A stretch of DNA of 35,938 nt from the NCBI GenBank assembly GCA_051647385.1, contig JBOFDW010000011.1:1-35938 (forward strand), given 5' to 3'. This DNA is from Fusobacteriaceae bacterium (GTDB taxonomy: Bacteria > Fusobacteriota > Fusobacteriia > Fusobacteriales > Fusobacteriaceae). Positions 10,191-32,129 of the stretch are shown here, piece after piece (position 1 is the first letter of the stretch; every line of letters begins with the position of its first letter). Position numbers and translations under genes: made by a program. The notes under the pieces were generated by a model that saw only the letters and a list, made by a program, of their open reading frames with translations, searched no databases and had not been told where the DNA came from.

Positions 10191-10230
10191 CAAAAACCTT
10201 TTTTTATTTGTGCAACTTTTTCAGCAAAGA

Positions 10231-10257: not shown

Positions 10258-10281
10258 GAATTTTTAGCTTTTATAAAATTA

Positions 10282-10542: not shown

Positions 10543-10601
10543 TAAAAACCTCCATACTTAAAAATCTTAATAAATTATTTCGTTTATCAATCACGTTAGG
10601 T

Positions 10602-10629
10602 ATTGTATCATAAAATTTAAAAAAGTCAA
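10602..10629 (-). promoter_or_regulatory. putative rpsT promoter
   Basis: On the minus strand: TTGACT, 16-nt spacer, TACAAT with a TG extension, about 55 nt upstream of the start. Confidence 0.5.
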
Positions 10630-10668
10630 AGTAAAATATTTAATATATAAATAATTTTTTCTCGAAAT

Positions 10669-10708
10669 AAAAAACGAGAGCTTATAAAAAATACAACCCT
10701 CGTTTTTA
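10669..10708 (-). terminator. putative hpf terminator
   Basis: Minus-strand stem ACGAGGG/CUCUCGU (one G-U pair) followed by a U-run. The loop is long (16 nt), so confidence is moderate. Confidence 0.45.
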
Positions 10709-10776
10709 TTTAAAGTTTTAGAAAACTTTTTACTTATAAATTTTCAAATAAATATAAACTTAATTTTTTCTCTCAC

Positions 10777-13267: not shown

Positions 13268-13945
13268 TTATATATTGTTTGTAGATGAATTGTTTTTTTT
13301 TAGATAGGAATTTTTTGTATAATAATTTTCCATACCATCAATAATTTTTTCAATAAATTGGAAGACCTCATTTTGAATTTTATCTAAATCATTTAATGTA
13401 AGATTGCTAGAGCATTCAGAAAAAGAAACCAAACCATGTGCTAAATTATTTCTAGCATTTTTAACTATTTCAAGCTTTTCAGCTTGTGGGACTTTATACC
13501 TAATCTTATGGCGATCACAAATTTTTTTTATTACATTATCGTCTAAATTTCCATTTATTCCAATCATTTTTCTATTAAAAATCATAGAATGATTTAATAT
13601 GATTTCATCAACAACATTTTTAAAACCTTTGCTGTGTCCATTTTTATCTAAAGAATTATTAAAGAGATTTGTAGAATTATGATCTAACCAAATCTTTTGT
13701 AGTTCTACTATAAGACTATTGTATGAATGGCTACCATCTTTAATCTTCTCATAAATTTCCTCAATACCTTTCATAATAGTTGCTTCTACTAAATTGTATA
13801 GCATCAAAAGAAAATTTGATTTTAAAATTCGGAATAAAGATTTTGGATTTATTTCGACAAAATTATTTAAAAAATTGTAAAACTCTGTCACTTCATTTTT
13901 TCTAGTTGCAAAAATTTCTTTTGTGGAAACCATGATTACAATCAC
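13268..13945 (-). CDS. HEPN-domain protein (predicted RNase)
   Basis: All-helical-looking 221-225 aa protein with a single canonical Rx4H motif, ARNNLAHG (nt 13436-13453). The GTG at 13945 overlaps the upstream stop (GTGA); an alternative ATG at 13933 has the SD GGGTGA. Confidence 0.7.
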   Translation of the reverse strand: MIVIMVSTKEIFATRKNEVTEFYNFLNNFVEINPKSLFRILKSNFLLMLYNLVEATIMKGIEEIYEKIKDGSHSYNSLIVELQKIWLDHNSTNLFNNSLDKNGHSKGFKNVVDEIILNHSMIFNRKMIGINGNLDDNVIKKICDRHKIRYKVPQAEKLEIVKNARNNLAHGLVSFSECSSNLTLNDLDKIQNEVFQFIEKIIDGMENYYTKNSYLKKNNSSTNNI

Positions 13946-14982
13946 CCTTTTAATAGTTGATTTTTTACATATACTACCCTTTCCTCCAATTTTCCTTTAT
14001 TATTACTAGCATCGGAAGTAGTTAATTCTTTGAATTTATGAGAATCCAACCAATCTATATTTGTTGGATATAAGTTAATTTTTTCTCTTAGAGCCAAAGC
14101 AACACCAACTGAAATAGCTTCAAATCTAACCCTAGGAGTTGTACTTGAGTCTTTTGATTTAGCAAAGCCAAATGGGAAATGTTTCTCAACAAATTTCAAC
14201 ATTGATTCAAATTCTTTTTTAAATTTTTCTTCGTCAAAACTATTAAGATTATTCTTAAGATATTCATCTAAAAAATTTTTGACTTCATTTCCAACATTTT
14301 CATAATTATTTAAATATGCAAAAAATCTCAAGACAAATTCAAATCGATCTTTTTGATTTACTTTTTTTGCTGATAGAGGAGCCAATTTTATGAAATCTTT
14401 ATTGTCTGAACATAATTCAATAAAAGAAGTTAATTTCCCGCGATATGCACCACGTCTAACTTCAGATGGGACGGCATTTTTACCAGCTGTATTTATTCTA
14501 TGAAAAAGATCTATTCTAACGTCTTCTGTTGTATTTTCATCTAATATTATAATCCTTAAAGAAATATTTAAAAATTTATCTTTTCGGGCATTTAGTAAAT
14601 CTTCATAATAGAAACCGTTAAGCTCTGTCAATTTTTTAAGTCCTTCTATTTTGAATTTATTCCCAATAAAATCGCTAATTGTTCTAGTCCTTTGAGCTCC
14701 GTCAATAATTTCAAATGTACCATTTGAACAAGTTGCGAAAAACATAAAAGGAATTGGCAAACCTAGAAAAAGAGACTCTATAAAAAAGTTTTTATTCTCA
14801 GAAGTCCATACATCAGCTCTTTGATATTCAGGGATAAAAAATGATTTTTTTGTAAATTTTTCAACAAGTAATTCAACTGTATAATCTTTTGTATCATACT
14901 TTACATTTTTATTGAGTGTTGCTATCTGTAAATCAGCTTTAAGTTTATTTTCATGAGAAATATTTTTGTTTTCTACTGTCAT
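13942..14982 (-). CDS. DUF262 (ParB/DndB-like) domain protein without DUF1524 nuclease module
   Basis: Signature motifs IPEYQRADVW, FEIIDGAQRTRTI and DLFHRINTAGKNAVPSEV. The start overlaps the methyltransferase stop (ATGA). Confidence 0.8.
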   Translation of the reverse strand: MTVENKNISHENKLKADLQIATLNKNVKYDTKDYTVELLVEKFTKKSFFIPEYQRADVWTSENKNFFIESLFLGLPIPFMFFATCSNGTFEIIDGAQRTRTISDFIGNKFKIEGLKKLTELNGFYYEDLLNARKDKFLNISLRIIILDENTTEDVRIDLFHRINTAGKNAVPSEVRRGAYRGKLTSFIELCSDNKDFIKLAPLSAKKVNQKDRFEFVLRFFAYLNNYENVGNEVKNFLDEYLKNNLNSFDEEKFKKEFESMLKFVEKHFPFGFAKSKDSSTTPRVRFEAISVGVALALREKINLYPTNIDWLDSHKFKELTTSDASNNKGKLEERVVYVKNQLLKG

Positions 14983-16055
14983 AGTTTACCTTCTCTTTTT
15001 AAATGATTTAAAATACTTAATCCAACTGCATGACCTAATTCAACTGGAACCGCATTGCCGATGTGCATTCCAATATTTCTAGTATTAAGATTTTTTTCTT
15101 GATCTAAAAACAAATAATTCTCTGGGAAAGATTGAAGTATTGCACCCTCTCTTAATGAAAGTGCTCTTTCCTGATCTGGATGACCAAATCGACCGTTTCC
15201 ATATCCAAAAAATTGAGTGGTTATAGTTGGTGCAGGAGCATCCCAACACATCCGACCATATACGGAAGAATAAGATTTGCCACTAGATTTTTTATGACAC
15301 TTAAGCCTTAATTTTTCGTCCCAGTCTCTCCATGTTCCACCTGGCTTTGATTGCCTTATTCTAGCAATATTCATCTTAGAAAGCTTTGCACACCTATGTA
15401 ATAAATCTTTTGCAGAAAAATCCCCATGTTTTAAAGGAGGGAGATGACCTATTGCTTGACGAACAGTTGGATATTTATTTGGAGATGTAAATGGAGGAAC
15501 TAAAATTATTTTACCAAATCGCGACGCTAAAAGCACTAATCTTTTTCTATTTTGAGGAACACCATATGAAGCAGAATTTACAATATCAAAACTTACATAA
15601 TAACCTAGTTCTTCCAACTTTTTTATGAAATCATTAAACACATCAGTTTTAGGAAGAGCAGCAACATTCTCCATAGAAATTATATCTGGCAAAATTCCTT
15701 CAACTAAGTTTGAAAAAGAATATAATAATTTCCACTTTTCATCTTGATGACCGTTTTTTCTATATCTATCTGTATATTTGGAGAAAGGTTGGCATGGAGC
15801 ACAACCCATTAAAATTTTTATGGAGTTTTTAGGATATAATAAATTGAGTTCTGAAGATGAAATAGAAGTTATGTCTTTATTTATAAAAATAGAACCATTA
15901 TTTTTTTCATAAGCAAACCTACATGACTCATCAATGTCAATTCCAGCTATAACTTCTATTCCAGATTTTTGAACACCATAAGTAAGCCCACCAACACCAC
16001 AAAACAAATCAACAGCAACACACTTCAAAATTTTCATCCTCCTTGCAACCAACAT
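14979..16055 (-). CDS. dcm: DNA (cytosine-5)-methyltransferase
   Basis: Motif I DLFCGVGG, motif IV GCAPCQPFS, motif VI ENV, motif VIII QNRKR, motif X GNAVPVEL. The start may instead be the ATG at 16037. Confidence 0.9.
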   Translation of the reverse strand: MLVARRMKILKCVAVDLFCGVGGLTYGVQKSGIEVIAGIDIDESCRFAYEKNNGSIFINKDITSISSSELNLLYPKNSIKILMGCAPCQPFSKYTDRYRKNGHQDEKWKLLYSFSNLVEGILPDIISMENVAALPKTDVFNDFIKKLEELGYYVSFDIVNSASYGVPQNRKRLVLLASRFGKIILVPPFTSPNKYPTVRQAIGHLPPLKHGDFSAKDLLHRCAKLSKMNIARIRQSKPGGTWRDWDEKLRLKCHKKSSGKSYSSVYGRMCWDAPAPTITTQFFGYGNGRFGHPDQERALSLREGAILQSFPENYLFLDQEKNLNTRNIGMHIGNAVPVELGHAVGLSILNHLKREGKL

Positions 16056-21196: not shown

Positions 21197-22984
21197 CTAG
21201 AATTTTTTTGGGATGTCCATAAAAAATCCATACTCTCTAAACAAGTCAGCAACTATTTGCAAAGAATCTTTCTTCACAAGAATATGAAAATCCTCGCCTT
21301 TCAAAATATGCGACTTAAATCTTTTATCCTTGGAGATACTTTCTATCAAAGTTTTCTCGTTCTCTAATTTTAAAACAATATATTCTGGAATATATTTTAT
21401 TGCAGTGGTTTTTTTCATCATGTCCTCCAAAAAAGTTCCCCAGCATTCTGGCAACTCATGTGATAACTTGCTCTTAAAAGTTTCTATACGCTCACGCACA
21501 TCTGTTGCAGTCATCAAGTCTTTCAAAAAACTTTCCTCTGTCAACTTGAATTTGTTTGGAGCAATCTTTGTAGAAATTTTACCAAAAAACATTGACTTAG
21601 AAGGTGCTTCACCAATAATAGTTGCGATGAGTCTGTCCTCGTCAAGCTGAACTTCCCCTTCTTCTTTAAGCTCGTTGAACTCAAAATTATTTGGGAAACC
21701 AAACACATACTTACCAAACTCTGTGAGTCGAACGGCTTTCAGTCCTTCATACTTGCTCAGATATCCGCTCTTCAAATATAAACTGATTTTTTGTGATGGA
21801 GCTTCATAGAAAACTTCCACGACTCCCAAAACTGCCAGTACAAAAAATGAAGATTTTATAAATGGAACTACGACATAGTTCAAATAATTTTCGTAGGTCT
21901 CAATTTTTGTCCGCTTATAATTTGCCTCGTTCAAATAAATATACCCGAAAGCATCTTCAACACTTACTATCTCAATAGGTTCATCTTGATATAAGATTCT
22001 CTTAACTATATTGTCAATACTTATGAGAGGGTTTGAAGTTTTGGTCACTGGAAATTCTCGGACAACTTTTTCGATAGTCCCGAGACAATCCTCAACAATT
22101 TCTTTTCCCTTGGGAGAATTTTTCAGCCCCTTTAAATAATTCATGTACAAAAAGCTGTAATGAAATTTTTCCTTACGAACAATTTTCCCAGAGAGAAAAT
22201 CCAGCACAAGTTTTTTCATACTATCAGCAGAAAAATTATCAGCTTTAATATGCCCGTCATCTATCAAGTGGAAAAATAAAGCGATAGTCTCCGTTTTTAA
22301 ATATAGCATTTCTTTTTCTTCGGTGAAATATTCGCTTATCTTACAATATTTTGCCATATTTTCTTTGGACTCTTTCAAAATTTTTCCAGAGGAAGAAATG
22401 GCGATACCACCTTGATCATAGAAATCACAGTACATCTTAATATTTTGCATGAAAGTTTTTTCATCATTGGCAGTGTAGCACTCATATTTTTTATTAGTTT
22501 TTCTAATTTCATAGTCAGGAGATTTTTCTGGAAGCACGTTCCAAAGTTCTCGCATCATGTCAAAGGGTAAAGTTAGGTACTCATTTTTTTTCATGTCTCT
22601 TTTTGCTTGGAAAAATAAATACTCATCTTTTAAATTTTTCTCGAGATTAAAAGTTGTGTGACCAGAAAAATAAAGTTGCCTATCTTTTTTGATAGTAAAT
22701 TTTCCTTCCCATGCAATCGTCTCAAAAATAGTTTTCATATTATCGTCGAGAGACTCAAAAATTTTATGAAAATTTTCTGGCTCAAACATTCTCACTACTA
22801 AATCTATCAGGACATCTCTGTCGCTGTCGGCTGTAATCATACAGCTAACTTTTGGGTTAGCCAAATCTTCCCCGAGATATCCGTCAACCATCCAATCCAA
22901 AAAATACGTATCGAATAATTTGCCGAGAATTTCTCGAGTATAAAGTTCTTTAACATCTCCAACGAATCTATCTTTTTTTCTCAT
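21197..22984 (-). CDS. hypothetical 595-aa protein, SNF2-helicase partner
   Basis: Long uninterrupted ORF 25 nt downstream of the SNF2 gene, followed by the repeated terminator. No catalytic or metal-binding motif recognised. Confidence 0.7.
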   Translation of the reverse strand: MRKKDRFVGDVKELYTREILGKLFDTYFLDWMVDGYLGEDLANPKVSCMITADSDRDVLIDLVVRMFEPENFHKIFESLDDNMKTIFETIAWEGKFTIKKDRQLYFSGHTTFNLEKNLKDEYLFFQAKRDMKKNEYLTLPFDMMRELWNVLPEKSPDYEIRKTNKKYECYTANDEKTFMQNIKMYCDFYDQGGIAISSSGKILKESKENMAKYCKISEYFTEEKEMLYLKTETIALFFHLIDDGHIKADNFSADSMKKLVLDFLSGKIVRKEKFHYSFLYMNYLKGLKNSPKGKEIVEDCLGTIEKVVREFPVTKTSNPLISIDNIVKRILYQDEPIEIVSVEDAFGYIYLNEANYKRTKIETYENYLNYVVVPFIKSSFFVLAVLGVVEVFYEAPSQKISLYLKSGYLSKYEGLKAVRLTEFGKYVFGFPNNFEFNELKEEGEVQLDEDRLIATIIGEAPSKSMFFGKISTKIAPNKFKLTEESFLKDLMTATDVRERIETFKSKLSHELPECWGTFLEDMMKKTTAIKYIPEYIVLKLENEKTLIESISKDKRFKSHILKGEDFHILVKKDSLQIVADLFREYGFFMDIPKKF

Positions 22985-23009
22985 AATTTACAAACCTCAA
23001 TTCCTTTTT

Positions 23010-25817
23010 TTATTCTGCACCAAAAATAAACTGTATATCATCCTCAGTCAAAAATTTTACCGAAGCGTTGTCCTCAGATATCAGGTTTTCTAGTAACTCG
23101 GTCTTTAAGCCTTGAAGCTTTAAAATTTTCTCTTCTATACTATCCTTCAAAATTAATTTGTAAGAAAATACTGTTCGGTCTTGCCCAATTCTGTAAGCTC
23201 TGTCCACAGCTTGGTTTTCCACAGTCTTATTCCACCACGGGTCATATATAAAAATAGTATCGGCGGAAGTTAAGTTGAGACCAACTCCACCAGTTTTTAA
23301 CGTCATTACGAAAACTTTATAGCTGCTATCTTTTTGAAACCTGTCAACTAAATTTTGCCTGTCGGTTGTAGCACCTGTCATGGTCAAATATTTTATTTTG
23401 AAAACATCCAGCTCCCTGCAAATTCCTTCGATGGAAGCAATATAATTTGTGAAGACCAAAACTTTATGCCCGTTGGCAACTGCGTCAGCAACACTATTTA
23501 TAAGATGCTTTCTTTTGCTGGATAATATTTTCGGGTTCTTACTTTCTGGGCAACTTGTAATTTGCCTCAGCTCGTTAATCGCCTGCAAAAGATAAAATTG
23601 CGACTTACCAAGTCCCTGCTCTTTAATCTGAGCTTTGACGGCGTCATAATAATAAATCCGCCTCTCTTCATAAAACTTTTTCTGGTCGTGGTTCATTTCT
23701 ATAACAACAGTTTGCTCGATTTTATCTGGCAAATCTTTTAGAACTTCTTTTTTTATCCTACGCAAAATAAATGGGTAGATTTTTTTTCTAAGCTCTTGAA
23801 TAACTTCTTTGTCATTGTCACGTTGAATAGGATTTGCATAAACAGCATTAAAAGTATCCAGCGACCCAAACATGTTTGGATTCAAAAATCTGAACAGTGA
23901 ATAAAGTTCTGTCAAATTATTTTCGATTGGAGTTCCGCTCAGTGCCAATCTATTATTAGAAGTTAATAGCATGATAGCTTTTGTAGTTTGAGCGTTTACG
24001 TTTTTTATATTCTGAGACTCGTCCAAAATTACCAGCTCAAAAGGAATCTTAGAAATTTTTTCGATGTCGTTCCTCACCGTACCATAAGTTGTCAAGATAA
24101 CTTCGTGCTCATCAAAAGTTTTCATGTCTCGAAAGTTTCCGTAATAAATTCCACTGTCAATTTGAGGTGCGAATTTTTTTATCTCACTTTCCCAGTTGAA
24201 TACCAAACTTTTTGGCATTACGACCAAACTTTTTCCAGATTTATTATCACAAATTTTTGATAGGAGGGCAATTGCCTGCAAAGTTTTTCCAAGCCCCATA
24301 TCGTCAGCCAGACATCCGCCCAAATTATTGTCCACCAAATAACACAGCCACTTGTAACCGTACTCTTGATATGTTCTCATCTCGGCTCGAACATTTGGCG
24401 GAGTAGTTTCATAATTTTCTATCTGATTTATCCCGTTAAAAAAGTTTGCACTCTTAATAAATTCTTGCCCGAAAATTTTTTCCTCAATCATTTCTTCCAC
24501 GATGGGCAAATCAAAGAAAGAAATTTTTACCGAATCACCAGAACTTCCAACATTAAATATTCGTTCAAGTTTTTCAATATATTTATGATTTATCAGTGCG
24601 TTTGTCCCGTCGCTCAAAACTATATAAGAATCAGTTTTGTATGTCGCAAGAATATCCGCAATGGAAAATTTTTCGCCCTCGATATCCAGCTTAACATTTC
24701 CTTCCAAAAAGTTTATAGAATGTTTGAAGCTACCAACTATTTTTGGCTTAACAGTTTTGATATTATATTTTTTTAATTTCTCAGCACCAACAACACGATA
24801 TTTTGTTGCGAACTTCAAAAGTTCTTTCCCGATAAATTCTTTCGCCAAAGCTTCTTGGAGTATGAGCATGTTGTCGTCGTCCAAATAAAATCCAGACCTG
24901 ACTTTTATTAGTCGCTGATGTTTCACGAGAGCCTTTGTAATTTCTTCAATGGCAACGCTCAGACCGCTCATATCTATTTCTGAAATCTGAATTTTTTTCT
25001 CCATATTATTTACGATGGCAATTTTCTCAATGCCGTTTTCTTTCAAGAAATCGTAACTCATTGTGGAAGCGCCAAGAGTAATTTTCATGTACAAACTATT
25101 ATCTTGGGAAATTTTTTCGATAATCATTTCAGGAACTAAAATTCTTTTCTCGCCACTGTCGATGGAATAATCCAAACAATTTATTTTGATATCGTGAAAA
25201 TACGTAGAAAAAATACTCAAAAAACTTTCCAGCTCCCACGATGAAAGTGATGATTGAAAATTTTTGAGCTCGTATATTGAGTCGTTTACTAAATCTAGCT
25301 TGAAAAATTTATCTTCGCAAAAAATATAATCGTCGTCAATAATTGTAATATCAGAATATTGTTCGTTTAAAAGAAAAAGACTTTTGAGTTTTATCCCTTC
25401 GTCTTGGTCTTCAACCTCGATAATATTTAGAGCAACAGAATTATTTTCAGGAAAATATTCTATCTGCTTGAAATTTTCATCAACAAAAATATTTGAATGC
25501 ACCAAAAGTTTCACAAGCTCTGGGTCATTGGAAATATATAACAGCTCAGAAAGTTTTGCAGCCTGAGCTTCGTCCATCTCTTCGTCTGTTGACCATGCGT
25601 CAAAATTCCATTGGCTCAAGTCCTCAGATTTTTTGCTTGCGGTTATGTAATCCAAAATTTCCAAATTTTGTTGAGACAAGTTAAATTTTTCAAAATTTAT
25701 TTTCAGCTCAGAAAATTCTTCCGTCTTTTCTCCGTCAAATATAATCGTTTCAACATAAGGACCTATTTCATTATTTTTAAGCATAAAATAAATTCCACGT
25801 TCAATAGGTATCATCAA
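23010..25817 (-). CDS. SNF2-family helicase with about 480-aa uncharacterised N-terminal region
   Basis: Motif I DDMGLGKT, motif II VILDESQNIKN, helicase-C motifs (LKTGGVGLNLTSADTIFIYDPWWN, QAVDRAYRIGQ). SD AGGAGAA upstream. Confidence 0.9.
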   Translation of the reverse strand: MMIPIERGIYFMLKNNEIGPYVETIIFDGEKTEEFSELKINFEKFNLSQQNLEILDYITASKKSEDLSQWNFDAWSTDEEMDEAQAAKLSELLYISNDPELVKLLVHSNIFVDENFKQIEYFPENNSVALNIIEVEDQDEGIKLKSLFLLNEQYSDITIIDDDYIFCEDKFFKLDLVNDSIYELKNFQSSLSSWELESFLSIFSTYFHDIKINCLDYSIDSGEKRILVPEMIIEKISQDNSLYMKITLGASTMSYDFLKENGIEKIAIVNNMEKKIQISEIDMSGLSVAIEEITKALVKHQRLIKVRSGFYLDDDNMLILQEALAKEFIGKELLKFATKYRVVGAEKLKKYNIKTVKPKIVGSFKHSINFLEGNVKLDIEGEKFSIADILATYKTDSYIVLSDGTNALINHKYIEKLERIFNVGSSGDSVKISFFDLPIVEEMIEEKIFGQEFIKSANFFNGINQIENYETTPPNVRAEMRTYQEYGYKWLCYLVDNNLGGCLADDMGLGKTLQAIALLSKICDNKSGKSLVVMPKSLVFNWESEIKKFAPQIDSGIYYGNFRDMKTFDEHEVILTTYGTVRNDIEKISKIPFELVILDESQNIKNVNAQTTKAIMLLTSNNRLALSGTPIENNLTELYSLFRFLNPNMFGSLDTFNAVYANPIQRDNDKEVIQELRKKIYPFILRRIKKEVLKDLPDKIEQTVVIEMNHDQKKFYEERRIYYYDAVKAQIKEQGLGKSQFYLLQAINELRQITSCPESKNPKILSSKRKHLINSVADAVANGHKVLVFTNYIASIEGICRELDVFKIKYLTMTGATTDRQNLVDRFQKDSSYKVFVMTLKTGGVGLNLTSADTIFIYDPWWNKTVENQAVDRAYRIGQDRTVFSYKLILKDSIEEKILKLQGLKTELLENLISEDNASVKFLTEDDIQFIFGAE

Positions 25818-25883
25818 AAATTTCTCCTAAAAAATTTTCTTGTAAAAATCTTGCAAAAATAAGGTTAAACATACTCACTCGAC

Positions 25884-25912
25884 ATTATACCATATTGGCT
25901 AAATTGTCGCAA
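25884..25912 (-). promoter_or_regulatory. putative promoter of the SNF2 operon
   Basis: Minus-strand TTGCGA, 17-nt spacer, TATAAT with a TG extension, about 65 nt upstream of the start. Confidence 0.5.
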
Positions 25913-25919
25913 CTGAAAA

Positions 25920-25964
25920 AATTTTTAGAGAAGAAGTTTGAAGGCGAGCGATAAGCCTTCATAA
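25920..25964 (+). repeat. REP-like hairpin repeat, copy A
   Basis: AATTTTTAGAGAAGAAGTTTGAAGGC-gagcgataa-GCCTTCATAA. It matches copy D (inverted) at about 41 of 45 positions. Confidence 0.8.
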
Positions 25965-26020
25965 TTTTTTTATATTTATCCAAGTTTTTTGTCATGAAAA
26001 TTATTTTTAAGCTATTGAAA

Positions 26021-26080
26021 TTTTTTAGAGAAGGGGGGCGACCGCTAAGCCACCCATAAAAAACTTGCTAAGAATATTTA
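26021..26080 (+). repeat. REP-like hairpin repeat, copy B
   Basis: TTTTTTAGAGAAGGGGGGC-gaccgctaa-GCCACCCATAAAAAACTTGCTAAGAATATTT. It shares the 3' flank with copy C. Confidence 0.8.
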
Positions 26081-26086
26081 TTTTGA

Positions 26087-27523
26087 CTACCCTTTGTCAT
26101 TAAGTTTTCTGAAGGCTTGATTTATTCTAAAAATGCCAAGCACTAAAAATATTTTTTCCAGTAGCAGGAAAAATTTCACGCCTAAATGTAATTCTTTATT
26201 TAGAATTTCAAAATTAATTAATGAGTTAATATATTCCACTAAAAAATTTCCCCATATTTTTAGAGTGAACCCGTCCATTCCGATGAAAATAAATTTTGAC
26301 GTAAAAAATTGTGATATAAAATACAGTAACAAAGTTAAGGACACCGTTGTCCAAATTCCTCTCCACCAACTTAGACCATAATTATTTGACCACTTGTTAA
26401 AAAATAAAATTATTCTGTCCTCGTAATTTCTTTCCACAATAAATTTTTGTGCCTTTATAAAAAAATTTTCAATGCGAGTTTTTTTGAGTAAAAAATTTGA
26501 AAATTTTCTAAATATTATTCCAAATTTTGTTGGCTTAATTTTTTCTTTTAGTTCTTCATGATAAGCTGTCATCTCTTTTCGCAACAATTTATTTGCAAGA
26601 ATTTTATTATGATTTTCGATGGCTATATGTTTCAAGAGTCGCCATGTATTTCTACTACATTTTTTGATTTTGTCATAACTCTCATCTTTCATAACTAAAA
26701 ATTCTGTCCCTAATAAATTATGTATATCATCGAACGCTAAGTAATCTATCTCACTAATGTCAAAGTAAAGATATTTTTCAAAAGTTGCTTTGGAAAAATC
26801 TGGATTTCTATTAAAAGTTACACAAAAAAAATCAGTCCTGTCACAAAAAATCGCATTAGGAAAATAAGCATATTCTTTGAAATTTACAAGAGAAAAATCT
26901 ACCTGACCTCTCAAATGTGCCTCATTAAAATAAGCTGACTTTCCAATGTTGGTAGAATAAAAATTAGTTTTTCCATTAATTATTGCTCCAGAAAACCTAG
27001 CGTTTTGACCAATCAAAGCATTAGAAAAATCAATTTCTCCACTAATTGTTGAACCAAAATCAGCATCACCTTTAATTACTGAACAAGAAAAAATAGCATT
27101 GCCTTCAATTTTTGACAAATAAAAGTCAACTTTCCCGCTAATTATTGCCCAAGAAAAATTAATATCTCCACAAATTTTTACTTCTCTAAAATTTGCATCT
27201 CCGTTAATTGTTGCCATACGGAAATTTGTATGCCCTTTAAAAATTGCATTAAAAAAATTGGCATTTCCTTTGAAAATTACCAAAGAAAAATCATTTATAC
27301 CTTTTTGCACAAGTTTAGTTGCTTCTTCACAAACTTCTTTTGGCAAAATCATTCGATAGAATCTATCAAGCATCCCATTTGCTCCAATTTCCATCTCATA
27401 TGTGAAGTTATAATTTTCATCAACAAGTCCAAGTTCCCTACAAACTTTTTCTATTTTTTTATGATTTTCTTCTTTATCTTTTTCCTCTGGTTTATATCTC
27501 TCCATAACTTTTACCTCTTCCAT
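26087..27523 (-). CDS. pentapeptide-repeat protein with C-terminal transmembrane segments
   Basis: About 200 aa of A(N/D)Fxx-type pentapeptide repeats (GNANFFNAIFKGHTNFRMATINGDANFREVKICGDINF...). Two hydrophobic helices lie near the C-terminus (GIWTTVSLTLLLYFISQFF; FFLLLEKIFLVLGIF). SD GGAGGG and a TATAAT at 27558-27563. Confidence 0.85.
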   Translation of the reverse strand: MEEVKVMERYKPEEKDKEENHKKIEKVCRELGLVDENYNFTYEMEIGANGMLDRFYRMILPKEVCEEATKLVQKGINDFSLVIFKGNANFFNAIFKGHTNFRMATINGDANFREVKICGDINFSWAIISGKVDFYLSKIEGNAIFSCSVIKGDADFGSTISGEIDFSNALIGQNARFSGAIINGKTNFYSTNIGKSAYFNEAHLRGQVDFSLVNFKEYAYFPNAIFCDRTDFFCVTFNRNPDFSKATFEKYLYFDISEIDYLAFDDIHNLLGTEFLVMKDESYDKIKKCSRNTWRLLKHIAIENHNKILANKLLRKEMTAYHEELKEKIKPTKFGIIFRKFSNFLLKKTRIENFFIKAQKFIVERNYEDRIILFFNKWSNNYGLSWWRGIWTTVSLTLLLYFISQFFTSKFIFIGMDGFTLKIWGNFLVEYINSLINFEILNKELHLGVKFFLLLEKIFLVLGIFRINQAFRKLNDKG

Positions 27524-28060
27524 TCTTTCCCTCCAAAAATATTTTTATCTACATTAATTATATCACACCTAAAAAAAATTCCCTCGCAAAATATTTGTCC
27601 TCCCCAAAACCTATCCTTCCAACCAAAATCCCCTCCCATTTTTCTCTAAAAAAAGTCCAAACGAAAAATACCGCGTCATACGAGGTCATACAGGCATTTT
27701 CACTTTTTACATGAACGTAAGTTCACAAAAACCGTTTAACACCCCTTAATCGCGACTCGATTTTTTCCTAATATAGTTGACTTTGCGAGTTTTGTCCTTA
27801 AAGCGTCCTTCGAAACACACAAACTTCATCAAACAAACCCTCATAAAACCAGCCCTGAAAAATTCCAAGCTTTTTGAGAGGCAGTTTTTCGTGATATATC
27901 ATTTTCATACGAAAGACAAAAGACGATTGTTTTTAAAATTTCACATAAATATTTTTACAAAAAATATTAAAACTAAAAAGTAAACTAATATTTTGAGTTA
28001 GGAGTTTCATAGTTTTCATGCTATACTTTAGATATAAAACTTTGAGGAGGCGGAAAAATT

Positions 28061-28576
28061 TTGGAGAACTTAACATTGCAAGAGAGAAAAATAATTGTCA
28101 CTGATATGATAGTCAGGTTCACGAAAAAAATCGGGCGAGAAAAAAAGACTCGTCAGACTTTGTTTAAGCGAATGACTCTCAGAAAACTTATCGAAAAAAA
28201 GATGATTGAAAATATTCCGCTACCTGAAGACTCAGCCTACGAAAGTTATGACGAGTGGCTTAAAAGTTGCGTGCGACGAGAAAAATATAATATGACAGTC
28301 CTGAAAAATATCCAAAAAGCTAAGAGTAATGTTTGGGTTTTGGAGTGGGGGCTTAGAAAACTCGAAGAAGAAATAAGACAAGAGAAAGAAAAGCAAGTGA
28401 ATTTTTTTGAGAGGCTTCAGGCAGTTGGACAAACTTTTAGTTTTGAAAAAGATGAGAATAATTACCAAGAAAATTTTAATAAAGAAAATAATTATATAAG
28501 CAGAAAAAGTTTCGGGCGAAATTCGAGCTATGAATTTTCTCGAGGGCAAGTTTTGTTTCTCAGAAGGAAGCGATAG
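28061..28576 (+). CDS. hypothetical basic coiled-coil protein
   Basis: 171-aa ORF with a TTG start 10 nt after the SD GAGGAGG. No recognisable domain. Confidence 0.5.
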   Translation: MENLTLQERKIIVTDMIVRFTKKIGREKKTRQTLFKRMTLRKLIEKKMIENIPLPEDSAYESYDEWLKSCVRREKYNMTVLKNIQKAKSNVWVLEWGLRKLEEEIRQEKEKQVNFFERLQAVGQTFSFEKDENNYQENFNKENNYISRKSFGRNSSYEFSRGQVLFLRRKR

Positions 28577-28593
28577 TTTTTTTGTTGTGCGGA

Positions 28594-28680
28594 TTTTTTT
28601 AGAGAAGAAAGTTTTAGAGAAGGGGGAGCAGGGGGGCGAGCGATAAGCCACCCATAAAAAAACTTGATAAGAATATTTTT
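28594..28680 (+). repeat. REP-like hairpin repeat, copy C
   Basis: TTTTTTTAGAGAAG...TTTTAGAGAAGGGGGAGCAGGGGGGC-gagcgataa-GCCACCCATAAAAAAACTTGATAAGAATATTT. The TTAGAGAAG head is duplicated. Confidence 0.8.
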
Positions 28681-28782
28681 TTTTATTTTGAGCTGACTAA
28701 TAAAATTTGGTAGGCTTTTTTATTTTTAAAGTAAAAAAACTTTTCAAGGATTTATTTCTTTTGTATTTTTATGTAGTTTATA

Positions 28783-28791
28783 TGCTACAAT
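28783..28791 (+). promoter_or_regulatory. extended -10 (TGcTACAAT) for the small-peptide transcript
   Basis: TGCTACAAT lies about 50 nt upstream of the SD of the 21-codon ORF. It resembles the -10 regions of the two downstream sRNA units. Confidence 0.45.
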
Positions 28792-28840
28792 GCTTTGGGC
28801 TTAAAACTGCCGACCCTTCAAAAAAAGGGAGGTGAATTTT

Positions 28841-28906
28841 TTGGTTATAATACGATTATTTTTGCTCATAGTTTTATTCTTCTTGATTTTTAAGAAAATT
28901 CTATGA
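28841..28906 (+). CDS. 21-aa hydrophobic peptide, candidate type I toxin
   Basis: Not in the ORF track because it is too short. SD GGGAGGTG (28827-28834), 8-nt spacing from GGAGG, then a TTG start. The peptide is MVIIRLFLLIVLFFLIFKKIL with a TGA stop, and a 9-bp perfect hairpin follows. Confidence 0.45.
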   Translation: MVIIRLFLLIVLFFLIFKKIL

Positions 28907-28921
28907 GTGGCAGTTGAGCCA

Positions 28922-28948
28922 AGAGCATGGATTCGCACCCCATGCTCT
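28922..28948 (+). terminator. hairpin after the small ORF
   Basis: AGAGCATGG-attcgcacc-CCATGCTCT perfect 9-bp stem followed by TTTAATTTG. Confidence 0.5.
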
Positions 28949-29021
28949 TTAATTTGTATGATATTTTTAATGGTCAATAAAAACATTTTACAATTTTCTA
29001 AAAGTATGGTACAATATTTTT

Positions 29022-29080
29022 GTTAATCGTATAACCAAAATTTCACCAAACTAAAGAGAGGGTGCGACCTCTCTTTTTTA
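29022..29080 (+). ncRNA. candidate antitoxin sRNA 1 (about 58 nt)
   Basis: Extended -10 TGgTACAAT at 29008-29015. Terminator AGAGAGG-gtgcga-CCTCTCT plus T6 at 29053-29080. The 5' part TTAATCGTATAACCAAAATTTCACC is complementary to 28831-28858 (SD end, start codon and first codons of the peptide ORF). Confidence 0.45.
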
Positions 29081-29117
29081 TTTTGTAATTTTCTAAAAGC
29101 TATGCTATAATAATTTA

Positions 29118-29177
29118 TAAGTTTGAAAAGCAAGTATCACCAAACTAAAAGAGAGGGTGCGACCTCTCTTTTTTATT
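29118..29177 (+). ncRNA. candidate sRNA 2 (paralogue with a different 5' region)
   Basis: Same promoter block (AATTTTCTAAAAG...TGcTATAAT, -10 at 29106-29111) and the identical 3' module CACCAAACTAAAAGAGAGGGTGCGACCTCTCTTTTTT. The hairpin could also terminate the convergent ankyrin gene. Confidence 0.4.
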
Positions 29178-29195
29178 TCGCAAATATTTTTGTTG

Positions 29196-30026
29196 TTATT
29201 TTGCTCCGTATTGCATTAATAATTTTTCAATAGAATTGTACTCTAGTTTTCTAGCAAGTTCAAGTGAAGTGTCTCCGTCAGAATTTTTTACATTTGGATT
29301 AGCTCCATACTCCAATAAAGTTTTAACACATGAATAATGCCCGTTCAGTGACGCTACTATTAGAGGTGTTGCTTGAGCATTATTTCTTGCATCAATATTT
29401 GCTTTATTGTTAATCAAATATCTAACTATAGTTTCATCACCTTTTACTGCTGCAACATGCAAAGGAGTCCACCCATCGTTGTCGGAAATATTCGGATTAG
29501 AATTATTCTCTAACAAAATATTTACGATTTCTTTATTCCCTGCCTCAACTGCATACCTTAGAGCTGTCCAACCATCTTTATCTTTTGCATTCACATTTGC
29601 TTTATTGTTAATCAAATATCTAACTATAGGTTCATTCCCTTTTGCTGCAACATGCAAAGGAGTCAATCCATCGTTGTCGGAAATATTCGGATTGGAATTA
29701 TTCTCTAACAAAATATTTACGATTTCTTTATTACCTACCTCAACTGCATACCTTAGAGCTGTCAAACCATCTTTATCTTTTGCATTCACATTTGCTTTTG
29801 CATTGATTAAAATTTTTACAGCCTCTTGATTTTCAAGTGGAACAGCGTACATTAAGGCTGTTATAGTATTTTTCAACTCATTTACATTATCACCTTTTTT
29901 CAAGGTATTTTTTAATGCGTCCATATCATTATTGTCGACTGCGTCAATTACTGGTCCAGCAAAAACTAAAGTTGAAACCAAGCTCATTAAAAATATTACT
30001 GATAAAAACTTTTTTAAACCTCTCAT
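29196..30026 (-). CDS. secreted ankyrin-repeat protein
   Basis: The ATG at 30026 follows the SD GGAGGG. Signal peptide MRGLKKFLSVIFLMSLVSTLVFA. At least seven ANK repeats are present (DGxTxLxYAV..GN.EIV..LL..NAN.N). Confidence 0.85.
   Translation of the reverse strand: MRGLKKFLSVIFLMSLVSTLVFAGPVIDAVDNNDMDALKNTLKKGDNVNELKNTITALMYAVPLENQEAVKILINAKANVNAKDKDGLTALRYAVEVGNKEIVNILLENNSNPNISDNDGLTPLHVAAKGNEPIVRYLINNKANVNAKDKDGWTALRYAVEAGNKEIVNILLENNSNPNISDNDGWTPLHVAAVKGDETIVRYLINNKANIDARNNAQATPLIVASLNGHYSCVKTLLEYGANPNVKNSDGDTSLELARKLEYNSIEKLLMQYGAK
29398..29795. repeat. tandem duplication (2 x about 197 bp) inside the ankyrin gene
   Basis: 29401-29598 and 29599-29793 are near-identical apart from a 3-nt indel and a few substitutions. 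Each unit encodes two ANK repeats. Confidence 0.85.
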
Positions 30027-30221
30027 TTTTATTCCCTCCAACTTTATTTGTATCTAAAAAAATACAGACTTAAAATATTATAGTTTACAGTTATAATATT
30101 TGTCAATTCATTCAACAGAAAATTTTTCACACAAAAATATAACTTACCAGTAACTTTATGCGAAAATATATGATATAATGTTTAGAGTAATTGAGTAAAA
30201 CTTTTTGGAGGAGATTTTAAT

Positions 30222-30965
30222 TTGGTAGAGAAATTAAATAATAAAAAAAGTGATTTAGATTTACTCAGAAAAAGAGGCTACATTGAAAATTATGATTTAA
30301 TAAAATTTAGTGAATTAGATAAAACTGAACTGATAAAAATGTTGCACGATGAAATGCCAGTACATCGTTCCATAGCTTCAAAAGTTTTGGGCTTGAAATA
30401 TGGCTTAGAAGATGAGCAGATAGTCGACGCACTTCTTGAACAACTCTCCAAAGAAAAAAAGTTATATACAAGATTAGAAATTTGCTCAACGCTTGAAAAT
30501 GGTAGCAGTTTAGTGGCAAAAAAAATGATTTCATATTTGGGGAAAATTGGAAGTAACCAGCATAAATTTATTCTTAGTAAACCATCATTAAAAAGTAGTT
30601 ATCCATTGCCAAGAGATTTAATATCAAGAAGTTTGGCTAGGATGAAGCGAGAAATAATGCCAGTATTATTAGAGGTGCTGGATAGCGATGATCTAGATAA
30701 AATTTCCGAGATATTAGATGCAATTGGATTTTTAGCATTTTACGATAAAGATGCCACAACTATGCAAGATATGAATAAAGTGATAGAGACGATTGAAAAA
30801 TATTCTAACAACAAAATTATTTTTTGGAAAGGAATTATTTGCTTGTCGGCTTTTCCTTTTGTAGAAACAAAGAAGTTTCTTCAAAATATAATTGAAAATA
30901 ATACAAATAATTTATATGTAGAAGAAGCAAAAAGATCGCTCAAAAATTTAAAGTATGATAAGTAA
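30222..30965 (+). CDS. HEAT-repeat-like helical protein
   Basis: 247 aa with a TTG start after the SD GGAGGAG. Helical repeats resemble PBS-lyase/HEAT-like units (VHRSIASKVLGLKYG...DALLEQL; SRSLARM...VLLEVLDSDD). No catalytic motif. Confidence 0.55.
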   Translation: MVEKLNNKKSDLDLLRKRGYIENYDLIKFSELDKTELIKMLHDEMPVHRSIASKVLGLKYGLEDEQIVDALLEQLSKEKKLYTRLEICSTLENGSSLVAKKMISYLGKIGSNQHKFILSKPSLKSSYPLPRDLISRSLARMKREIMPVLLEVLDSDDLDKISEILDAIGFLAFYDKDATTMQDMNKVIETIEKYSNNKIIFWKGIICLSAFPFVETKKFLQNIIENNTNNLYVEEAKRSLKNLKYDK

Positions 30966-30991
30966 AAAAATCTTCAGGAGGTAACTTTTTT

Positions 30992-32044
30992 ATGGAAAAG
31001 GGAATGTTCACAGAATTTTATATAGAGGAAAATATTTGGGAGGAGCTGGAAAAGCACGTCAAAAGTTTCCAGCAAATTTTTGTTGTGCACGGCGAAAAAT
31101 CTTTAATCGCCATAGAAAAAAAATTACTCAAAGTTTTTGGAGACAAAAAATATACGCTAGTAAATTACGGCGGAGAATGTTCATATAACAATGCCGAAAA
31201 AATCTTAGCAAAATTTAATAGCCTAAAAAATAAACCAGAAATAATTTTGGCAGTGGGCGGAGGAAAATGTATTGACGTGGCAAAAATTGTAGCAGAAAAA
31301 TCTTGCACCGACATTTTTGTTGTCCCAACCATTGCCTCAACTTGTGCTGACACATCAGGACTTTCTGTTGTGTATGAGGACTCGCATAAATTTTATGAAC
31401 TTTATTTCTTGAAAAATCCGCCGAAAAAAGTTTTCATAGATTTATACACAATTTATAAAGCACCGAGAAAATATTTGTGGGCTGGGATGGGAGACACTCT
31501 GGCAAAATATTATGAGTTCAATTTGAAGGCGGAAAATCAATATTTGAATTATCAAACGAAACTCGGCAAATCTATTTGCAGTATGTGCAAAGATTCTGTC
31601 TTGAAAAATGGTAAGACCGCTTACGATAACGACGAATTTATCAGCGACGAGTTTAGAGAAGTTGTGGCGACGATTTTGATTTCCACTGGCTACGTCTCGA
31701 ATCTCATAGACTTTTTTTATAATTGTGCCTTGGCTCACATAATTTTTAATTCTTTCACGGTGATTCACGAGGTGGAGAAAAATCATTTGCATGGGGAAGT
31801 TGTTGCATACGGAATTTTGGTTCAACTTTCAATAGAAAATAAGCACGAAGAATTGGACGAGCTATTAAAGTTTTATAAGTCTATAGGATTGCCCACAAAA
31901 CTTTCTGATGTTGTGAGTGCGAAAAATTTTGCTGAGCATAAAGAAAATATCTACAAAGATATAATTTGGAATGCCATGAACGAAAAAATTCCGCTGGAGT
32001 TATCACCTGAAATACTTGATAAAGTTTTTGAAATAAAAAACTAG
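30992..32044 (+). CDS. iron-containing alcohol dehydrogenase family protein (glycerol dehydrogenase-like)
   Basis: Nucleotide-binding loop AVGGGKCIDVAKIVA and metal-site motifs (GMGDTLAKYYE; HLHGEVVAYG). Confidence 0.85.
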   Translation: MEKGMFTEFYIEENIWEELEKHVKSFQQIFVVHGEKSLIAIEKKLLKVFGDKKYTLVNYGGECSYNNAEKILAKFNSLKNKPEIILAVGGGKCIDVAKIVAEKSCTDIFVVPTIASTCADTSGLSVVYEDSHKFYELYFLKNPPKKVFIDLYTIYKAPRKYLWAGMGDTLAKYYEFNLKAENQYLNYQTKLGKSICSMCKDSVLKNGKTAYDNDEFISDEFREVVATILISTGYVSNLIDFFYNCALAHIIFNSFTVIHEVEKNHLHGEVVAYGILVQLSIENKHEELDELLKFYKSIGLPTKLSDVVSAKNFAEHKENIYKDIIWNAMNEKIPLELSPEILDKVFEIKN

Positions 32045-32084
32045 TAAAAAATTAAGAGAAATAAATTTTTAGAAAGCAAAAAAT

Positions 32085-32129
32085 TTATGAGGGCTTATCG
32101 CTCGCCCTCAAACTCCTTCTCTAAAAATT
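32085..32129 (-). repeat. REP-like hairpin repeat, copy D (inverted)
   Basis: The reverse complement reads AATTTTTAGAGAAGGAGTTTGAGGGC-gagcgataa-GCCCTCATAA. Both stem differences from copy A are compensatory. Confidence 0.8.

Follow-up and report, generated by a model that had tools for sequence, protein, structure and literature searches.

A candidate chromosomal type I toxin–antitoxin module with a duplicated, same-strand sRNA gene in an uncultured member of the Fusobacteriaceae

Introduction

The par locus of plasmid pAD1 from Enterococcus faecalis specifies the Fst toxin mRNA (RNA I) and its antitoxin (RNA II) from convergent genes that share a bidirectional terminator. Par-like loci are defined by a list of features that includes the following (PMC7472228). 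The toxin ORF is small, encodes a hydrophobic peptide and is preceded by a strong SD, and the 5' part of the sRNA, which is ~60 nt long, covers both this SD and the start codon. The two RNAs have complementary loops of the terminator type, at which they first kiss, and the loop of the toxin RNA carries a UUCG of the YUNR type. Within the mRNA, the SD is masked by an intramolecular stem (5'-SL) and the extreme 5' end is sequestered by a helix (5'-UH).

Other type I systems are built differently. The antitoxin genes of tisB/istR-1, zorO/orzO, shoB/ohsC and dinQ/agrAB of E. coli are adjacent to the toxin gene without overlapping it, divergent and on the opposite strand, with ~20 nt of complementarity. 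The trans-encoded antitoxins of E. coli mostly bind the 5' UTR or standby site instead of spanning SD and start codon, and dinQ is accompanied by two tandem sRNA paralogues of which agrB alone represses. In hok/sok of plasmid R1, long-range pairing between the 5' and 3' ends keeps the full-length toxin mRNA inert and activation of the hok mRNA requires 3' processing; Sok, a true antisense RNA, overlaps the mok leader. Trans-encoded type I antitoxins are generally found on the strand opposite to the toxin (PMC12390103).

Here we describe an unannotated gap in the chromosome of an uncultured member of the Fusobacteriaceae that most likely contains a gene for a small membrane toxin along with two sRNA genes, one of which appears able to block translation of the toxin. 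[quoted passage not shown]

Results

Organization of the locus

The window analysed is a stretch of 35,938 nucleotides from a metagenome-assembled genome (MAG) with 31% G+C, and the locus lies within it inside a variable island that the nearest relatives do not have. The promoters, SD, ORF, hairpins and terminator of the initial annotation were all located where it had placed them by sequence reading and scans; it had missed a second sRNA gene, a 5'–3' clamp in the toxin mRNA, a match between hairpin loops and a plasmid relative of the sRNA genes. The features are as follows.

28783–28791, + strand: promoter of the toxin mRNA, extended -10 TGCTACAAT (sequence reading)
28798–28955, + strand: predicted toxin mRNA, RNA I-like, ~155 nt (fold prediction)
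28798–28811, + strand: 5' clamp arm GGCUUA..ACUGCC at the extreme 5' end of the mRNA (predicted fold)
28814–28829, + strand: short SD-masking stem, CCCUU (28814–28818) with AAGGG (28825–28829) (MFE and centroid folds)
28827–28834, + strand: SD GGGAGGTG (sequence reading)
28841–28906, + strand: candidate membrane toxin ORF of 21 codons, TTG to TGA, encoding MVIIRLFLLIVLFFLIFKKIL
28909–28920, + strand: 3' clamp arm GGCAGUUGAGCC, beginning 3 nt past the stop codon (predicted fold)
28922–28948, + strand: 3' hairpin of the toxin mRNA, perfect 9-bp stem (sequence and fold)
28987–29015, + strand: sRNA1 promoter, TTTACA, 17-nt spacer, TACAAT, with TG extension (TGGTACAAT; 10/12 consensus plus TG)
29022–29082, + strand: sRNA1, candidate antitoxin, ~60 nt (promoter and terminator scan, pairing)
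29083–29111, + strand: sRNA2 promoter, TTGTAA, 17-nt spacer, TATAAT, with TG extension (10/12 consensus plus TG)
29118–29178, + strand: sRNA2, paralogue of sRNA1, coordinates approximate (repeats, terminator scan)

The + strand carries all three promoters, with the genes in the order toxin, sRNA1 and sRNA2; a consensus scan of the - strand gave no promoter-like site facing the toxin gene. The toxin hairpin (28922–28948) is separate from the sRNA terminators (29055–29074 and 29150–29169) and differs from them in its stem, and there is no shared bidirectional terminator. No Rfam family was found at gathering thresholds in the whole window. Two further candidates were considered and rejected: a 171-aa upstream ORF as the remnant of a mobile element (no match in Pfam, PADLOC or plasmids, and a weak PHROG match), and a decayed second toxin copy at 28560–28790, for which the alignment was no better than those of shuffles.

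The candidate toxin ORF and its mRNA

Transcription of the candidate toxin gene is predicted to start at G28797–28799. The TTG codon (28841–28843) lies 6 nt past the SD octamer and 8 nt past its GGAGG core, and the ORF ends with TGA at 28904–28906; an in-frame version of 24 amino acids with a GTG start is present in the ORF list. The peptide of 21 amino acids has a mean hydropathy of 2.6 and is predicted to be a hydrophobic single helix. Within the 36-kb window this was the only intergenic ORF of 15–55 codons with an SD, a start codon and a mean hydropathy > 1.5. F, I, L and K are abundant in random ORFs at 31% G+C, an observation that counts against the toxin reading.

Neither the 21-aa nor the 24-aa peptide had a match in Pfam or NCBIfam, even at E <= 10, and tblastn of both against plasmids returned nothing. 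Against an HMM of the plasmid toxin family described below, the peptide scored 0.2 bits, which was equalled by 599/2000 shuffles and is nothing beyond composition; it also has no PXXXG motif, no conserved Trp and no charged C-terminal tail. That toxin homology was not found favours a reading in which the ORF encodes an ordinary, non-toxic small membrane protein under sRNA control, with sRNA1 and sRNA2 as sibling sRNAs of wider regulons. We consider this distinctly unlikely, and against it stands the mRNA itself, which has the full par-type set of clamp, SD mask and kissing loop that is typical of toxin mRNAs.

The minimum free energy (MFE) of the predicted mRNA was -51.2 kcal/mol compared with -31.3 +/- 3.5 for shuffles (z = -5.7), with 0/200 shuffles folding equally well. 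In the predicted fold, the arms at 28798–28811 and 28909–28920 form a clamp of 12 bp with a 2-nt bulge; the best 5'/3' duplex of the mRNA had an energy of -19.9 kcal/mol (z = -3.6) and was matched by 1/500 shuffles. The pairing of CCCTT with AAGGG in the leader, proposed in the initial annotation, is present in both the MFE and the centroid folds and covers the 5' part of the SD, with the support for this stem being weak at 5 bp only. Downstream of the clamp, the 3' hairpin consists of AGAGCATGG (28922–28930), the loop ATTCGCACC (28931–28939) and CCATGCTCT (28940–28948), and its loop AUUCGCACC includes UUCG, fitting YUNR. The U-tract that follows (UUUAAUUU) is weak and the hairpin makes a poor intrinsic terminator; it was not called in the consensus terminator scan.

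sRNA1 is complementary to the translation start

The near-consensus promoter of sRNA1 ends exactly 7 nt before a segment complementary to the translation initiation region (TIR) of the toxin mRNA, and the gene closes with the terminator AGAGAGG-GTGCGA-CCTCTCT-T6 at 29055–29079 (stem 29055–29061 with 29068–29074; loop 29062–29067). The complementarity between the sRNA and the translation start was upheld when its duplex energy was calculated: the single-stranded 5' part of sRNA1 (29023–29048) forms 23 bp with the mRNA at 28830–28859, at -25.5 kcal/mol (z = -5.4), and 0/1000 dinucleotide shuffles were as strong. No non-self site in the 36-kb window, on either strand, was a better target. On the mRNA, the footprint spans positions -11 to +18, counted from the TTG. 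Because both genes lie on one strand, this complementarity takes the form of an inverted, not a direct, repeat.

A second complementarity lies in the hairpin loops. UCGCAC in the mRNA loop (28933–28938) is complementary to the GUGCGA of both sRNA loops at 6/6 bases (-11.9 kcal/mol), and this is so although the stems have diverged (AGAGCAUGG in the mRNA and AGAGAGG in the sRNAs).

An inverted repeat in a genome of 31% G+C could also be a chance product or a mobile element (MITE) whose termini are the two arms and whose ORF is an AT-rich by-product, and the arms are indeed imperfect. This is very improbable. Chance is opposed by the significance of the pairing (z = -5.4), and the three promoters, three hairpins and clamp stand at the positions expected for a par-like module. 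The initial annotation had itself raised the prospect that the arms are termini of a multicopy MITE; both arms are single-copy in the window, and exact scans with the terminator 20-mer, the sRNA 3' module and a TIR 24-mer gave no further unit in viral, genome and metagenome collections, the arms themselves being scanned exactly in the viral collection only.

The same-strand arrangement of both elements also fits a locus that works mainly as a fold-back switch in cis. As the mRNA hairpin terminates poorly, with its weak U-tract and no terminator called, transcription would read through into the sRNA1 segment, and the read-through RNA would fold onto its own translation start, as fbi does in hok, with processing controlling translation. 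The predicted read-through RNA (28798–29082) does fold with the sRNA1 segment on the TIR (-91.5 kcal/mol, z = -7.6). As the main mode of action this is nonetheless improbable, given that sRNA1 has a near-consensus promoter of its own and that the unit has been duplicated with its promoter included; fold-back in cis is, in any case, compatible with action in trans and not exclusive of it.

A second sRNA gene with a different 5' tail

The initial annotation had proposed one antitoxin sRNA gene. sRNA1 answers to that description; there are, however, two such genes, the second of which has no complementarity close to the ORF. A 95-bp tandem duplication (repeat families D2, D7 and D8) includes the sRNA2 promoter, and sRNA2 shares with sRNA1 the segment UCACCAAACUAAA, the terminator and the loop (GUGCGA, 29157–29162 in sRNA2). 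The 5' 20 nt of the two sRNAs are unrelated, the reverse complement of the sRNA2 5' tail being UACUUGCUUUUCAAACUU. The 5' part of sRNA2 paired with the toxin mRNA at -10.9 kcal/mol (z = +0.6) and had no significant target elsewhere in the window. The promoter, the anti-SD block CACC and the loop for kissing are all retained in sRNA2, which differs in its targeting tail. Probably it either acts on a different toxin mRNA, from another part of the genome, or is a spare copy in the process of diverging.

An identical single-stranded UCACCAAACUAAA combined with different 5' tails is the pattern of multi-target sibling sRNAs, which bears on the reading of the ORF as an ordinary membrane protein given above. 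The shared segment, on the other hand, is unpaired with the toxin mRNA beyond CACC, the window holds no other strong target, and the sRNA gene has its closest relative in a plasmid antitoxin.

A plasmid relative of the sRNA genes

The 20-nt core of the sRNA terminator was used as a search key and had one match in 596 Gb of genomes; about one match is expected by chance in a database of that size. The match (L001) lies on a 2.8-kb Rep_3 plasmid, where it is the antitoxin RNA of a module in which the toxin and sRNA genes converge. In addition to the key itself, the L001 sRNA gene has in common with the window sRNAs the motif TTTCTAAAA in the same position, in the promoter spacer of sRNA1, sRNA2 and the L001 RNA II. 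Terminators resembling GAGAGG/CCTCTC are also present on unrelated genes. The 20-mer gave one hairpin in a different context (L002) in metagenomes and no match in the viral collection, where the sRNA and TIR patterns were likewise not found. The blastn search of the locus against plasmids returned the terminator of an Acinetobacter pilin gene only, which was rejected as a generic look-alike.

The toxin of L001 belongs to a family (..YYICKWLD..) that is unannotated and occurs on 401 PLSDB plasmids of Firmicutes; this large par-like module family is a by-product of the present analysis. Its carriers include pRGI00686, pRGF00038 and plasmids of Ligilactobacillus, Streptococcus, Enterococcus and Clostridia. 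In 14/14 plasmid loci inspected the RNAs are convergent with a single bidirectional terminator, and a TGnTAnAAT box is found 6–8 nt upstream of the 5' clamp arm of the toxin gene. RNA II footprints in these 14 loci start at AGGTG and extend to +16 or beyond, and the loops are often UCGCA/UGCGA. L001, L008 and L009 have a 5' clamp at the place where the window mRNA has it (z = -2.5 to -4.2), and the 3' arm likewise falls at the stop codon.

The window locus resembles these modules in the extended -10 box of the toxin gene, the position of the 5' clamp, the stem that masks the SD, the complementarity of the loops and the footprint of RNA II; the toxin-strand loop of L009 (UUCGCAC, a 7-mer) is identical to the loop of the window hairpin; and L016 has the same AGGTG, 6 nt and start codon (AGGTGAATCTGATG in L016, AGGTGAATTTTTTG in the window). 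It differs from them in gene order and terminator, and in its peptide, which is 5–17 residues shorter than the family toxins (26–38 aa, with a conserved C-terminal motif). No sequence profile or covariance model connected the two. With an nhmmer profile built from 12 toxin RNAs of the family nothing was found at the locus, and a covariance model of 13 RNA II sequences gave E = 0.18 for sRNA2 and E = 9 for sRNA1, neither of them significant. The three closest plasmid toxin RNAs are 74% identical, and the covarying clamp arms of the family were not alignable by MAFFT. The L001 sRNA gene is the sole specific similarity to the family at the RNA level.

Exact-match scans and synteny searches found no orthologous or paralogous locus. 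Four proteins encoded in the window had no exact counterpart on record. Homologues of the HEAT-repeat protein used as a synteny anchor are at most 65% identical and lie in unrelated PKS clusters; the UvrD/PD-(D/E)XK helicase has different upstream genes in the nearest Fusobacteriaceae contigs, and therefore no orthologous locus is available from them.

These comparisons bear on whether the locus is a decaying relic, that is, a par-like module, probably plasmid-derived, that was captured, rearranged and is now eroding, in which the RNAs may be made, the 21-aa ORF would be inactive, and the complementarity would be left by a recent inverted duplication without selective maintenance. The short peptide without the conserved C-terminal motif, the broken canonical gene order, the lost targeting tail of sRNA2 and the position in a variable island absent in the nearest relatives are all in keeping with this. 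We nevertheless think it unlikely: nothing has been lost from the SD, the start spacing, the clamp, the SD-masking stem, the three promoters or the two terminators; the six loop bases have stayed perfectly complementary although the stems of the hairpins diverged; and very short peptides can be toxic, as are the Ibs toxins at 18–19 aa.

Discussion

The proposal that a toxin ORF is paired with a start-masking sRNA gains from the pairing, the clamp, the mRNA fold, the loops, the footprint and the L001 sRNA; no homology of the peptide to a toxin was found. We consider it probable, reading from the sequence, that the locus is a chromosomal type I TA module following the RNA logic of the par family, with its antitoxin gene downstream on the same strand and duplicated. 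The further claim that this is a functional par-type system in the Fusobacteriota, where none has been reported, with the antitoxin inverted onto the toxin strand and duplicated, is put forward tentatively, at a little under an even chance.

The locus has a counterpart of each of the par features listed in the Introduction, including the 5'-UH helix and a short 5'-SL. Unlike par, its genes are in tandem on one strand rather than convergent; two separate hairpins that keep loop complementarity only stand in place of a common bidirectional terminator; there are two copies of the antitoxin gene; the peptide of 21 aa is without the PXXXG(C) motif, conserved Trp and charged tail of the Fst/Ldr superfamily; and the host chromosome is that of a diderm, a member of the Fusobacteriaceae. 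The initial annotation had likened the architecture to tisB/istR, zor/orz and shoB/ohsC, a comparison that does not hold beyond the adjacent, non-overlapping antitoxin gene and the length of the complementarity: in those systems, as in dinQ/agrAB, the antitoxin is divergent and on the opposite strand, whereas here it is downstream on the toxin strand, and the RNA anatomy matches par. No kissing loops have been described for those four systems, and TisB, ZorO, ShoB and DinQ are unrelated to the window peptide, which had no Pfam or NCBIfam match at E <= 10. The agrAB pair does parallel sRNA1 and sRNA2. With hok/sok the locus shares long-range 5'–3' pairing in the toxin mRNA, and a read-through RNA that could fold back onto its own translation start; unlike Sok, sRNA1 is not a true antisense RNA, and there is no sequence relation.

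The following pathway is inferred throughout from the sequence and the par paradigm. The weak extended -10 promoter would give a ~155-nt mRNA whose 5' end is clamped just past the stop codon and whose SD is partly masked, and which should therefore be stable and poorly translated. The stronger promoter downstream would supply the ~60-nt sRNA1. The two RNAs would first meet in a kiss of GUGCGA, in the terminator loop of the sRNA, with UCGCAC, in the 3' hairpin loop of the mRNA, from which pairing may spread to the 26-nt 5' tail of sRNA1 over the SD end, the TTG and the first six codons, so that ribosome binding is blocked. If the supply of sRNA dropped, the longer-lived mRNA would be translated into the 21-aa single-helix membrane peptide, which would arrest or kill the cell.

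In a same-strand layout the complementarities are not automatic by-products of antisense transcription, so that, if this reading is true, their retention would show each to be independently selected. The loop kiss and the pairing at the translation start are encoded by separate DNA on the same strand, each thus being independently mutable, and the locus would amount to a natural dissection of par. The layout would also let sRNA1 repress in trans and a read-through RNA, by folding back, repress in cis. Searches for type I systems usually use toxin homology or antisense overlap, and the locus would escape both; if the reading is true, an antitoxin of type I can lie on the same strand as its toxin, and antisense-limited searches miss a class. 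To our knowledge, Fusobacterium is without Hfq and ProQ, and a pairing pathway nucleated by loop–loop contact would suit such a host. A working system in the Fusobacteriaceae would broaden the known range.

The candidate toxin gene and its mRNA

The initial annotation had proposed a type I toxin–antitoxin-like locus consisting of a 21-aa hydrophobic peptide and an adjacent sRNA, and its promoter box, Shine–Dalgarno sequence (SD), TTG-initiated ORF, hairpin and downstream sRNA unit were each recovered where it had placed them. A second sRNA gene (sRNA2, ~29118-29178), absent from that annotation, is the product of a 95-bp tandem duplication.

Features of the candidate locus
28783-91, + strand: extended -10 TGCTACAAT of the toxin gene
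28827-34, + strand: SD GGGAGGTG
TTG 28841 to stop 28904-06, + strand: 21-codon ORF, product MVIIRLFLLIVLFFLIFKKIL
28922-48, + strand: perfect 9-bp hairpin, loop AUUCGCACC
28987-29015, + strand: near-consensus sRNA1 promoter, TTTACA-17-TACAAT plus TG
Downstream of the toxin hairpin, + strand: sRNA1 transcript of ~60 nt with canonical terminator AGAGAGG-GUGCGA-CCUCUCU-U6
Within 29083-29178, + strand: sRNA2 promoter, TTGTAA-17-TATAAT plus TG

Of the intergenic ORFs in the window, the 21-codon ORF alone has both an SD and a start codon together with a length of 15–55 codons and a mean hydropathy >1.5. The peptide has no Pfam or NCBIfam match. That it is an ordinary small membrane protein regulated by an sRNA is, in our judgement, distinctly unlikely. 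The whole toxin mRNA folds at -51.2 kcal/mol compared with -31.3 for shuffles (z = -5.7). In the predicted fold a 12-bp helix clamps what is predicted to be the very 5' terminus of this RNA (GGCUUA..ACUGCC, 28798-811) to GGCAGUUGAGCC (28909-20), which begins 3 nt past the stop codon; the best 5'/3' duplex has an energy of -19.9 kcal/mol (z = -3.6).

Predicted pairing of sRNA1 with the toxin mRNA

The 5' tail of sRNA1 (29023-48) forms 23 bp with toxin mRNA positions 28830-59 at -25.5 kcal/mol, an energy matched by 0/1000 dinucleotide shuffles (z = -5.4), which bears out the earlier proposal that this sRNA is complementary to the translation start of the ORF. The footprint runs from -11 to +18 relative to TTG 28841, and the translation initiation region (TIR) of the toxin mRNA was the best non-self target of the tail on both strands of the 36-kb window. 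Each complementary arm is single-copy within the window, arguing against the arms being termini of a multicopy MITE; chance or a MITE is an exceedingly improbable origin for the arrangement.

The RNAs are also complementary at their loops. Both sRNA terminators have the six-base loop GUGCGA, every base of which can pair with UCGCAC, a part of the nine-base loop in the mRNA hairpin (loop–loop duplex, -11.9 kcal/mol); by a hand estimate rather than a simulation, the chance of such a match is ~1e-3 to 1e-4 for a GC-rich hexamer in 31% G+C DNA. The mRNA hairpin approximates the reverse complement of the sRNA terminator (AGAG(CAU)GG..CC(AUG)CUCU versus AGAGAGG..CCUCUCU), and because the arms match apart from a matched insertion in each, the two were probably once one bidirectional terminator.

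A duplicated sRNA with a different tail

Over the promoter and the 3' 40 nt, sRNA2 shares 90-100% identity with sRNA1, including an identical 3' module, UCACCAAACUAAA(A)GAGAGG-GUGCGA-CCUCUCU-U6, whereas the 5' 20 nt, the targeting tail, is unrelated. Neither the toxin mRNA (z = +0.6) nor the rest of the window contained a significant target for this tail. Its replacement resembles recombination with another allele more than point-mutation drift and points to a further cognate toxin elsewhere in the genome; sRNA2 may be the partner of a toxin mRNA on another contig, or a diverging duplicate. The pair can be likened to agrA/agrB at dinQ. We consider it unlikely that the locus is a decaying relic.

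Relationship to plasmid par-like modules

Across one genome per species (185,579 species, 596 Gb), the 20-nt sRNA terminator core had one exact match, in L001 (CALELF010000156.1; module at 548-800), a 2838-bp circular Rep_3 plasmid binned with a Synergistaceae MAG. The contig ends overlap and three iterons (GATGTGGAAGATTTACCT) are present, as in a small circular Rep_3 plasmid. The shared hairpin terminates a ~60-nt sRNA whose promoter-spacer motif, TTTCTAAAA, is common to both window sRNAs and whose tail is complementary to the translation start of a 32-codon hydrophobic ORF (MFTTHNLNKLIVSISASIIAYYVCKWLDRYFL), which converges on the hairpin from the opposite strand. A 9-bp helix links the 5' end of the L001 toxin RNA to its stop-codon region, and the module has the par (Fst RNA I/RNA II) architecture (PMC7472228). 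About one 20-mer match is expected by chance in 596 Gb, and look-alike terminators occur on unrelated genes, e.g. an Acinetobacter pilin gene; the link to L001 is nevertheless credible because the match is the terminator of a same-size type I antitoxin sRNA with the same promoter-spacer motif. The same 20-nt core, in an extended stem (AUAUAGAGAGAGG-GUGCGA-CCUCUCUCUAUAU), occurs in metagenome contig L002 (OGPZ01002437.1, 3874-3960, minus strand), where it closes a promoter-preceded ~60-nt unit. A small non-hydrophobic ORF follows this unit in the same orientation, and no toxin gene converging on the hairpin was evident.

A tblastn search with a peptide related to the L001 toxin matched 401 PLSDB plasmids (Enterococcus 333, Streptococcus 38; also Ligilactobacillus and Clostridia), with no annotated feature under the match in the 40 PLSDB records listed. 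The Synergistaceae bin is doubtful, as relatives of the L001 toxin are all on Firmicutes plasmids. Members of this large family of par-like type I toxin/RNA II modules include L001, L008 (HG796356.1), L009 (HG796794.1) and L010-L020. The plasmid toxins end ..YYICKWLD.., and two gave weak, sub-threshold matches to the NCBIfam Clostridioides type I toxin model. In 14/14 plasmid loci inspected both RNAs converge on a single terminator; stems covary, and half of the loops are UCGCA or UGCGA, that of L009 (UUCGCAC) being identical to the window mRNA loop. RNA II tail pairing begins at the AGGUG of the SD or <=5 nt either side (at the start codon in L010) and reaches +16 or beyond. The sRNA1 footprint is the same as theirs, and L016 shares the window's spacing of AGGUG, 6 nt and start codon (AGGTGAATCTGATG and AGGTGAATTTTTTG, respectively); these likenesses support TTG 28841 as the start codon over the in-frame GTG within the SD.

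Profile searches made no connection between the window locus and this family. Searching with an nhmmer profile built from 12 of the family's toxin RNAs found nothing at the locus, the 21-aa peptide did not outscore shuffles of itself when run against the plasmid toxin HMM, and a covariance model of 13 RNA II sequences (L001 left out) gave E = 0.18 for sRNA2 and E = 9 for sRNA1. The top window matches of that model, at 8759-8816 and 9815-9864 (+ strand), each consist of an A-rich leader with a terminator hairpin after it, lie within ORF-poor 8742-10776, and are probably ordinary terminators.

All par homologues retain convergent promoters and a bidirectional terminator (PMC7472228). Judged from sequence, it is well supported that the window locus works like par; its membership of the Fst/par family is not established. 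Two defining features, convergent promoters and one bidirectional terminator serving both genes, were sought in the window and not found, and a search for homology of the toxin was likewise negative.

Genomic context

The window spans the whole of a contig from an uncultured member of the Fusobacteriaceae; the LysS encoded there has 80% identity to 'MAG: Fusobacteriaceae bacterium' proteins and 73% to Cetobacterium, and look-ups of four window proteins gave no other record of any of them. Downstream of the locus lies a UvrD/PD-(D/E)XK helicase gene whose upstream neighbours differ in the nearest relatives available: EamA-transporter and PRD-regulator genes in L021 and L022, and SNF2, pentapeptide, TA, ankyrin, HEAT and Fe-ADH genes in the window (compared over 22000-32100). 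Given these differences, the HEAT-repeat gene, for which no syntenic homologues were found, and the surrounding defence-type genes, gene content places the locus in a variable island of the chromosome, where toxin–antitoxin modules are often found. These synteny comparisons yielded no orthologue of the locus.

The - strand of 21197-27523 encodes the 935-aa SNF2 helicase, which matches PADLOC models DpdE and ZorD, flanked by a 595-aa protein without a family match and a 478-aa pentapeptide-repeat membrane protein; the three may form an uncharacterised defence cluster beside the toxin–antitoxin candidate. Further upstream is a type II restriction-modification pair (13942-16055, - strand), a Dcm-type cytosine methyltransferase and an adjoining 346-aa protein (PADLOC NsnA, REase_II). 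Long stretches without convincing ORFs (27524-28060 and 28577-28780) lie either side of a 171-aa lysine-rich ORF (28061-28576) that had no Pfam, PADLOC or plasmid match, and a G-rich patch, GAGAAGGGGGAGCAGGGGGGCGAGCG (~28618-28643), is conspicuous against 31% G+C.

Proposed mechanism and implications

As the most likely mechanism we propose that the toxin mRNA would be made at a low level as a structured, 5'-protected molecule with its SD partly masked. Expressed from a stronger promoter, sRNA1 would first dock by a loop–loop kiss, and its 26-nt tail would then zip up with the mRNA from the end of the SD through the start codon and across the first six codons, shutting out ribosomes; on decay of sRNA1 the mRNA would be translated into the 21-aa membrane peptide. 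The duplicate sRNA2 retains the loop proposed for docking, as well as the CACC anti-SD block, but has a different tail. With all genes in the same orientation and only weak termination at the mRNA hairpin, a read-through transcript could additionally be self-repressing in cis; that the locus is mainly a cis fold-back switch is very unlikely.

Type I antitoxins are generally encoded on the opposite strand (PMC12390103). We found no type I system reported from Fusobacteriota in the literature. To our knowledge, no same-strand, duplicated arrangement that keeps both loop and TIR complementarity has been described. Resting on the sequence of one locus, this candidate type I system would be new in its same-strand, duplicated layout.
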